Sequence record: OR845630.1
Origin: Escherichia phage ECO95 1-6-1
Strand: one strand, 5' to 3'
Length of the DNA: 1,891 nt
Positions 370 to 390 of the stretch are shown here, piece by piece. The notes beneath the pieces were generated by a model. That model searched no databases, had not been told where the DNA came from, and was given only the letters and a program-made list of their open reading frames with translations. Position 1 is the stretch's first letter. Each line of letters starts with the position of its first letter. The position numbers and the translations under genes are program-made.

Positions 370-390
370 CAAATTTTTTCAAAAAATTTG
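370..390. promoter_or_regulatory. Perfect 21-bp A/T-only palindrome (candidate operator or DNA-bending element) in the yqjK-yqjF intergenic region
   Basis: caaatttttt-c-aaaaaatttg: two 10-bp arms that are exact reverse complements around a central C, about 140 bp upstream of the yqjF start. Its function is inferred, not shown. Confidence 0.3.

Follow-up and report, generated by a model that had tools for sequence, protein, structure and literature searches.

The 21-bp palindrome at positions 370 to 390 of the window, by which we mean the whole 1,891-nucleotide stretch analysed here, is in our judgement (with a probability of about 80%) the Salmonella orthologue of the published YhaJ operator, made up of a 13-bp TCA-N7-TGA box and a Salmonella-specific extension of its symmetry. 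The observations that carry this reading are the identity of the box to the E. coli site, the conservation of the box among species, a 21-bp register that is neither conserved nor covarying, and a nearby yhaJ orthologue. On this reading the palindrome would comprise the recognition box and the whole 9-bp linker that leads from it to the activation site. A YhaJ site at yqjF is already known in E. coli, and the preliminary description of this DNA, which had connected the palindrome with YhaJ, is right in substance and wrong in register.

Judged by its sequence, the window is the yqjC-yqjD-yqjE-yqjK region of Salmonella enterica, and not of E. coli, together with the first part of yqjF; the minus strand carries these genes and every long open reading frame. 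A Salmonella enterica record is 99.0% identical to the window, against approximately 81% for E. coli genomes with the same gene names, and the exact YqjK protein was found in 67,827 index blocks of public assemblies. The genes are yqjC (1530-1823), yqjD (1183-1488), yqjE (782-1180), yqjK (486-785) and the 5′ part of yqjF, a DoxX family gene of which the first 79 codons are present (2-238, with the ATG at 238-236). The yqjK-yqjF spacer is 247 bp long (239-485) and contains, at 421-470 on the minus strand, a terminator-like hairpin of yqjK that is followed by UUUUAU and folds as RNA with -29.7 kcal/mol (z -5.3). This gene context, with the two genes, the spacer and the hairpin, is as first described, and the palindrome does lie between the hairpin and the yqjF start. 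Within the hairpin loop (439-452), three of the four Salmonella-like contigs lack 10 nucleotides, having GGTTATCACCTGG where the window has GGTTATCGCCCGATTACACCTGG, and the shorter loop makes for a tighter yqjK terminator hairpin in those three. An open reading frame of 36 amino acids on the plus strand (281-391), which overlaps the palindrome, was dismissed as a mechanical one, antisense to the yqjF promoter. Some gene calls start the DoxX protein of yqjF at an ATG within the predicted -10 (TATGAT, 327-332), giving 161 instead of 130 amino acids, as at loci L082 (3445) and L085 (3455). The frame is open in both Salmonella and E. coli, the added residues show no conservation as protein, and in many species an ATG is missing at that place; the longer start is probably an annotation artefact.

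From 370 to 390 the window reads CAAATTTTTTCAAAAAATTTG, that is, two arms of 10 nucleotides, CAAATTTTTT and AAAAAATTTG, that are 100% complementary and flank a single central C, so that direct reading confirms the exact arms reported earlier. These 21 bp correspond to positions 2-13 of the YhaJ box and the 9-bp linker. The symmetry stops there, C369 and A391 being non-complementary, and no perfect palindrome in the whole window is longer. It is not composed of A and T alone, as had been stated: 18 of the 21 bases are A/T, and C370, C380 and G390 occupy the ends and the centre. Chance occurrence was assessed with dinucleotide-preserving shuffles, in which a perfect arm of at least 10 nucleotides with a loop of 0-1 nucleotide was counted; such an arm appeared in 0.09% of the shuffles of the 247-bp spacer (239-485), about 1 in 1000, in agreement with the original view that a dyad of this kind is unlikely to arise there by chance, and in 0.09% of those of the AT-rich core (355-420) and 0.37% of those of the whole window. 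With up to 3 mismatches allowed, the window holds a single copy, and among the fetched loci the palindrome occurs at the orthologous yqjF position only; a REP-like dispersed repeat, which would be present in multiple copies, was rejected on these counts.

The YhaJ recognition site itself, an LTTR box and probable RBS, is TCAAATTTTTTGA at 379-391 on the minus strand, a TCA-N7-TGA repeat of the T-N11-A type with its dyad centre at 385. The sense strand of yqjF runs ...ATTAC TCAAATTTTTTGA AAAAATTTG GCAATTTTCCTTG CTAACA..., and its 16 nucleotides from window position 391 to 376, TCAAATTTTTTGAAAA, are identical at 15 of 16 positions to the yqjF motif of E. coli K-12, TCAAATTTTTTGAAGA, with all 13 bases of the box (13/13) the same; the exact K-12 string was located at -150 from the yqjF ATG. 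The 16-nucleotide published motif corresponds to window 376-391. The box is centred 5 bp off the palindrome centre (385 as against 380), and its first T, at 391, falls 1 bp outside the palindrome; the T-N11-A dyad that the preliminary description had seen within the palindrome is present, with that one end beyond it. In the whole window 0.30 matches to TCA-N7-TGA would be expected.

The 16-nucleotide motif was derived by Palevsky et al. 2016 from six YhaJ-dependent promoters and contains TCA-N7-TGA, an inverted repeat of the T-N11-A type of LTTR sites (PMC5031710); its yqjF copy is quoted as TCAAATTTTTTGAAGA in PMC11739112. In the E. coli yqjF copy, single-base changes at consensus positions lower DNT induction by about 98%, an A to G change at motif position 13 abolishes induction, and a yqjF probe of roughly 300 bp is shifted by YhaJ in EMSA (PMC5031710). 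ChIP-seq by Connolly et al. 2019 found YhaJ at yqjF in both EHEC and UPEC (PMC6765310), and the critical residues of a footprinted YhaJ site are the C at position 2 and the TGA at 11-13 (PMC6765310; PMC7315121). The yhaK site and the yqjF 16-mer have six differences, equal to the “six bases” of mutation 4 in PMC5031710, which confirms the register of the motif. The comparison with published YhaJ data that had been proposed at the outset thus bears the site out by EMSA, ChIP-seq and mutagenesis in E. coli only, and YhaJ binding and the effects of box mutations would presumably be the same in Salmonella. The positions mutated in the E. coli studies (2 and 11-13) belong to both dyads, the 13-bp and the 21-bp one, and cannot discriminate between them.

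A cognate regulator is at hand. On contigs that carry the identical YqjK, the gene order continues with yqjF, yqjG, a DUF805 gene and a LysR-type gene of 298 amino acids, which on related Salmonella-like contigs lies approximately 2 kb beyond yqjF, outside the window. Over the 262 residues available (37-298) its product is 97% identical to E. coli YhaJ, so that contigs with this YqjK carry a yhaJ orthologue, and the helix-turn-helix of YhaJ is completely conserved in Salmonella according to Connolly et al. (PMC6765310).

It is in the comparison of species that the two dyads part company. Orthologous loci were collected by searching a single genome of each species for the N-terminus of YqjF, which returned at least 80 loci; the genera among the matches listed include Enterobacter, Citrobacter, Klebsiella, Raoultella, Kluyvera, Kosakonia, Leclercia, Pantoea, Cedecea and others, Escherichia albertii and Escherichia ruysiae are also among the 80 matches listed, and the window's own species is not among the 80 loci. 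TCA-N7-TGA is present in 79 of the 80 species among the matches listed, at -150 to -164 from the yqjF ATG and with seven interior bases that vary, and it lies within the same range in E. coli and in the window. Among 24 genus representatives the pairs T1-A13, C2-G12 and A3-T11 of the box are invariant (24/24) around a variable interior. The site thus has a TCA-N7-TGA dyad, homology to a supported site, and conserved ends with a variable interior, as YhaJ and LTTR sites do. The one exception among the 80 matches listed is Enterobacter sp. EA-1 (L071), where the box is absent and CTCCAGTTTTTTTGGA replaces CTCAGTTTTTTTGA upstream of yqjF, apparently through small insertions, with the downstream conserved block intact.

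Conservation in orthologous spacers was the test that the preliminary description had set for its own dyad, and the 21-bp dyad fails it where the 13-bp one passes. Among the loci compared, all 10 pairs of the 21-bp register are complementary in Salmonella only; E. coli SA186, E. ruysiae and E. albertii have 9/10 and K-12 has 7/10, Citrobacter and Enterobacter mostly have 6-8/10, and Klebsiella, Raoultella and Kluyvera, in which the box and the downstream block are intact, have 2-5/10. The mean over the 80 species among the matches listed, 5.97/10, equals that of a column-shuffle null (5.92, z 0.6). Covariation was examined in two ways, by a strict Watson-Crick column-shuffle on these 80 species and by counting structure pairs against 500 shuffles in the 24 genus representatives; the former was null for the 21-bp register, and the latter gave no excess of pairing or covariation over shuffles (260/500 and 273/500). 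The distal arm also varies within species while the box stays fixed: it is GAAGATTTTTG in E. coli K-12 and GAAAATATTTG in SA186, and in one of the four Salmonella-like contigs, which stand for clusters of similar contigs, GAAAAAAATTG breaks the palindrome in the distal arm and the box is kept. The symmetry of the 21 bp is accordingly not maintained as that of an operator acting as a unit, given the lack of covariation and the polymorphism of the distal arm within species. An extended dyad as a general property of YhaJ sites was ruled out as well, since the other K-12 targets (yhaK, ybiJ, yhhW, ygiD, bssS) score 2-6/10 in the 21-bp register.

The register centred on box position 12 nevertheless has the highest mean symmetry of all registers in the matches listed, most others being at approximately 2-4. 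Conserved columns account for this partial symmetry, namely the palindromic TTTGAA core in the right half-site, A16 and A17 facing the T-rich interior, and G22 facing C2. The 21-bp symmetry does not come from selection for complementarity; it is a Salmonella-specific extension, a lineage-specific by-product.

Counting from the first T of the box as position 1, the information content of the genus-level alignment outlines a promoter. The mean is 0.53 bits upstream of the box, 1.56 bits in the box (1-13), 1.0 bit in the linker (14-22), 1.74 bits in a block that resembles an ABS (23-35), 1.91 bits in the -35 (36-41), 0.84 bits in the spacer between -35 and -10, 1.37 bits in the -10 and 1.55 bits in the 18 nucleotides after it. 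The linker from the box to the ABS-like block, AAAAATTTG (370-378, minus strand), is the distal arm of the palindrome and is poorly conserved, reading AGATTTTTG in K-12, AAATATTTG in SA186 and AAAAAATTG in the Salmonella-like L085 with the box unchanged; within it, A16 and A17 reach at least 90% conservation in the yqjF orthologues among the matches listed. The ABS-like block, GCAATTTTCCTTG (357-369, minus strand), falls within a near-invariant block that is ACAGTTTTCCTTGCTAACAAT in other species, and the elements shared with other K-12 YhaJ promoters, given below, point to a second, degenerate site, nCA-N7-T(G/T)(G/A), in positions 23-35 (369-357 in the window). A consensus scan predicts a weak -35, CTAACA, at 351-356 on the minus strand, which is nearly invariant across species, and, after a spacer of 18 nucleotides, a -10, TATGAT, at 327-332 on the same strand; in orthologues the latter is TATGAT, TACACT, TATTAT or TAATAT, and the TAnnnT pattern is kept. 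From these elements (356-351 and 332-327) transcription would start near window position 320, a predicted start from which the centre of the box would be at about -65 and that of the palindrome at about -60, with the conserved ABS-like block next to the -35. As cited in a preprint, RegulonDB/EcoCyc gives three yqjF promoters, all purely computational. For the LTTR family, a recognition site near -65 and an activation site adjoining the -35 are described (Maddocks & Oyston 2008, as cited in PMC11739112), and according to PMC11739112 the RBS and ABS of YhaJ are unmapped at any promoter, E. coli included. We infer that the box is the RBS and the block the ABS.

The nCA at 23-25 and G22 are common to the K-12 promoters of yhaK, ybiJ and yhhW, at equal spacing from their boxes, and the elements that yqjF, yhaK, ybiJ and yhhW share are, on sequence grounds, candidates for a YhaJ activation site. 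In ybiJ and yhhW, GGTCAATT occupies positions 21-28, including G22 and a TCA at 23-25. C24-A25-G26 and GCTAACAAT (positions 35-43) are common to yqjF and K-12 yhaK with identical spacing from the boxes (window 351-369 compared with 8227-8270 of L086, the K-12 yhaK promoter). Directly after the -10 (309-326, minus strand) is another block, CTCTCCATCGACAGCA, nearly invariant in approximately 80 species among the matches listed, which in Salmonella is CTCTCCAGCGATAACA. Other species have GACAG twice, at box positions 22-26 and about 75-79 (window positions 366-370 and within 309-326), whereas every Salmonella-like sequence has GGCAA and GATAA in their place; the altered pair may mark a second site or a Salmonella-specific rewiring.

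Taken together, these features would fit the following mechanism. The 13-bp box, TCAAATTTTTTGA (391 to 379), would be bound with high affinity by one DNA-binding-domain dimer of the YhaJ tetramer, its centre lying some 65 bp ahead of the transcription start predicted for yqjF. The remaining half (378-370) of the palindrome would be an A-rich linker leading to the near-invariant block 369-351, which most likely holds the low-affinity activation site and the weak -35. By analogy with E. coli, YhaJ with hydroquinone-type effectors may reposition on this block and recruit RNA polymerase to yqjF. The 10+1+10 symmetry would then reflect a T-rich box interior followed by an A-rich linker, which happen to mirror each other perfectly in Salmonella; the Salmonella palindrome is 1-3 substitutions away from the Escherichia/Citrobacter state and would not itself be under selection.

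The predicted 5′ UTR of yqjF, outside the palindrome, has a hairpin of its own, CAAUGAUGCG-caagac-CGCGUCAUUG (286-311, minus strand; -13.6 kcal/mol, z -5.2), detected by folding each sequence separately and with a structure specified by hand. The same hairpin appears in 75 distinct orthologues, with a mean z of -3.4 and 93% below -1.5 in per-sequence folding. Its outer stem GCAA/UUGC is conserved and its inner stem has compensatory substitutions; in the 24-genus alignment 76.7% of cells are paired, against 24-42% in slid controls, 7 pairs are changed on both sides, and the covariation score was reached by 0 of 500 shuffles. RNAalifold on the MAFFT leader alignment returned no structure because of loop indels, and an Rfam scan of the window gave no match at E up to 1. 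The hairpin is not a terminator, since it is followed by an A-rich run; our guess is a 5′-proximal stabilising stem-loop. A second TCA-N7-TGA match, TCATGAGCAATGA, at 279-291 in the leader overlaps its 3′ arm. This match is missing from the other species among the matches listed, 11 of 200 shuffles contained at least 2 matches, and it is probably due to chance.

Three other readings of the palindrome were weighed. The whole palindrome might be an operator in its own right, for a second, yqjF-specific dimeric regulator or for an alternative register of YhaJ, with symmetry selected in the Salmonella/Escherichia lineage, and we regard this as unlikely. A perfect 10-nucleotide arm is rare by chance (P about 0.001), the register at box position 12 tops all others in mean symmetry over the 80 species among the matches listed, the count is 9-10/10 throughout Salmonella and in three Escherichia sequences, and TCA (1-3) with TGA (21-23) forms a TCA-N17-TGA inverted repeat in most species among the matches listed. 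However, the register does not covary, its symmetry drops to 2-5/10 in genera whose box and downstream block are intact, and the distal arm, which differs among E. coli strains as well as among Salmonella sequences, is conserved (1.0 bit) at a level near that of the non-functional spacer; moreover, G22 is better explained by the G-n-C-A element common to yhaK, ybiJ and yhhW, and the outer TGA is TGG in Salmonella itself. That the near-perfect symmetry of 21-23 bp (TCA-N17-TGA around the inner TGA) is functional in Salmonella/Escherichia, as an alternative register for YhaJ dimers or as the site of a second dimeric factor, we hold to be very unlikely. If it were true, a register shift of half to one turn would tune basal repression against induction of yqjF unlike in other Enterobacteriaceae, and the Salmonella changes in both GACAG elements would be part of a rewired promoter.

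It is likewise quite unlikely that the A/T tract acts through DNA shape, as a UP-like contact for alpha-CTD, as a hinge between RBS and ABS, or as a site for Fis, IHF or H-NS, a role that could coexist with YhaJ binding. The linker AAAAATTTG lies at about -59 to -51 from the predicted start, the same region in which Estrem et al. 1999, a study cited in PMC11739112, reportedly found the distal UP subsites, and A16 and A17 are conserved in at least 90% of the yqjF orthologues among the matches listed. LTTRs do bend DNA between their two sites (PMC11739112). Most species among the matches listed, however, have AAGAAGATTG as their linker, which is far less UP-like, and the GC-rich linkers of other YhaJ promoters, for example ACATACCGG and ACAGAGGGG, argue against a general need for an A/T linker; the yqjF linker in particular may be constrained by bendability, by contact with alpha-CTD or by a second factor. 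A role as a nucleic-acid hairpin, be it as a cruciform in DNA or as a terminator or attenuator in RNA, is extremely improbable. The single-stranded DNA does fold, with -7.6 kcal/mol including flanks (z -2.4), but the stem is all A-T except for the closing pair, no G+C-rich stem with a U-run was detected, and the true yqjK terminator (-29.7 kcal/mol) is just upstream in the direction of yqjK transcription. The palindrome is also upstream of the predicted yqjF start and therefore largely untranscribed, it has no Rfam match, and it lacks the compensatory changes that the same test found in the yqjF 5′ UTR hairpin. Composition, position and the absence of covariation led us to reject an intrinsic terminator or structured RNA, and a hairpin function of the palindrome is effectively refuted, that is, excluded for practical purposes.

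With the site read as a YhaJ operator, its weight as a discovery is little, since it is the orthologue of an operator already defined in E. coli. What it contributes is that the recognition unit is the 13-bp TCA-N7-TGA rather than the eye-catching 21-bp palindrome, and that the comparison of approximately 80 species yields a map of the yqjF promoter, with box, linker, near-invariant ABS/-35 block, -10 and conserved leader hairpin, such as we did not find in the YhaJ/yqjF literature cited here. In E. coli the yqjF promoter is the sensing element of landmine bioreporters for DNT/TNT, and the map could guide promoter engineering and the mapping of the YhaJ RBS and ABS.

Among known systems, a Rho-independent terminator has in common with the palindrome a perfect inverted repeat in an intergenic spacer; unlike one, the palindrome has an A/T stem, no U-run context and no covariation, and it lies outside the predicted transcripts. 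A UP element is an A/T tract at -40 to -60 that binds alpha-CTD. The likeness here would lie in a tract rich in A and T that precedes a weak -35, whereas the difference is that the tract is not kept A/T-rich in most orthologues and overlaps the site of a sequence-specific regulator. With LTTR promoters such as those of BenM/CatM and CbnR, built from an RBS with T-N11-A near -65 and a degenerate ABS next to the -35, the site has in common a T-N11-A dyad whose ends are conserved around an A/T-rich interior that varies, a putative second site, the degenerate nCA-N7-T(G/T)(G/A), 22 bp downstream and abutting a weak -35, and a regulator gene close by, although yhaJ is not divergently transcribed from yqjF and the positions relative to the transcription start are predicted ones. 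From the E. coli YhaJ/yqjF site itself the Salmonella site differs in its linker, in a palindrome of 10/10 against 7/10 in K-12, and in having GGCAA and GATAA for the near-invariant GACAG elements; it is like that site in its orthologous position, with the yqjF ATG about 150 bp downstream, an identical 13-bp box, 15 of 16 bases of the MEME motif, the same downstream architecture of GCTAACAAT and -10, and a yhaJ orthologue approximately 2 kb away whose 262 available residues are 97% identical.
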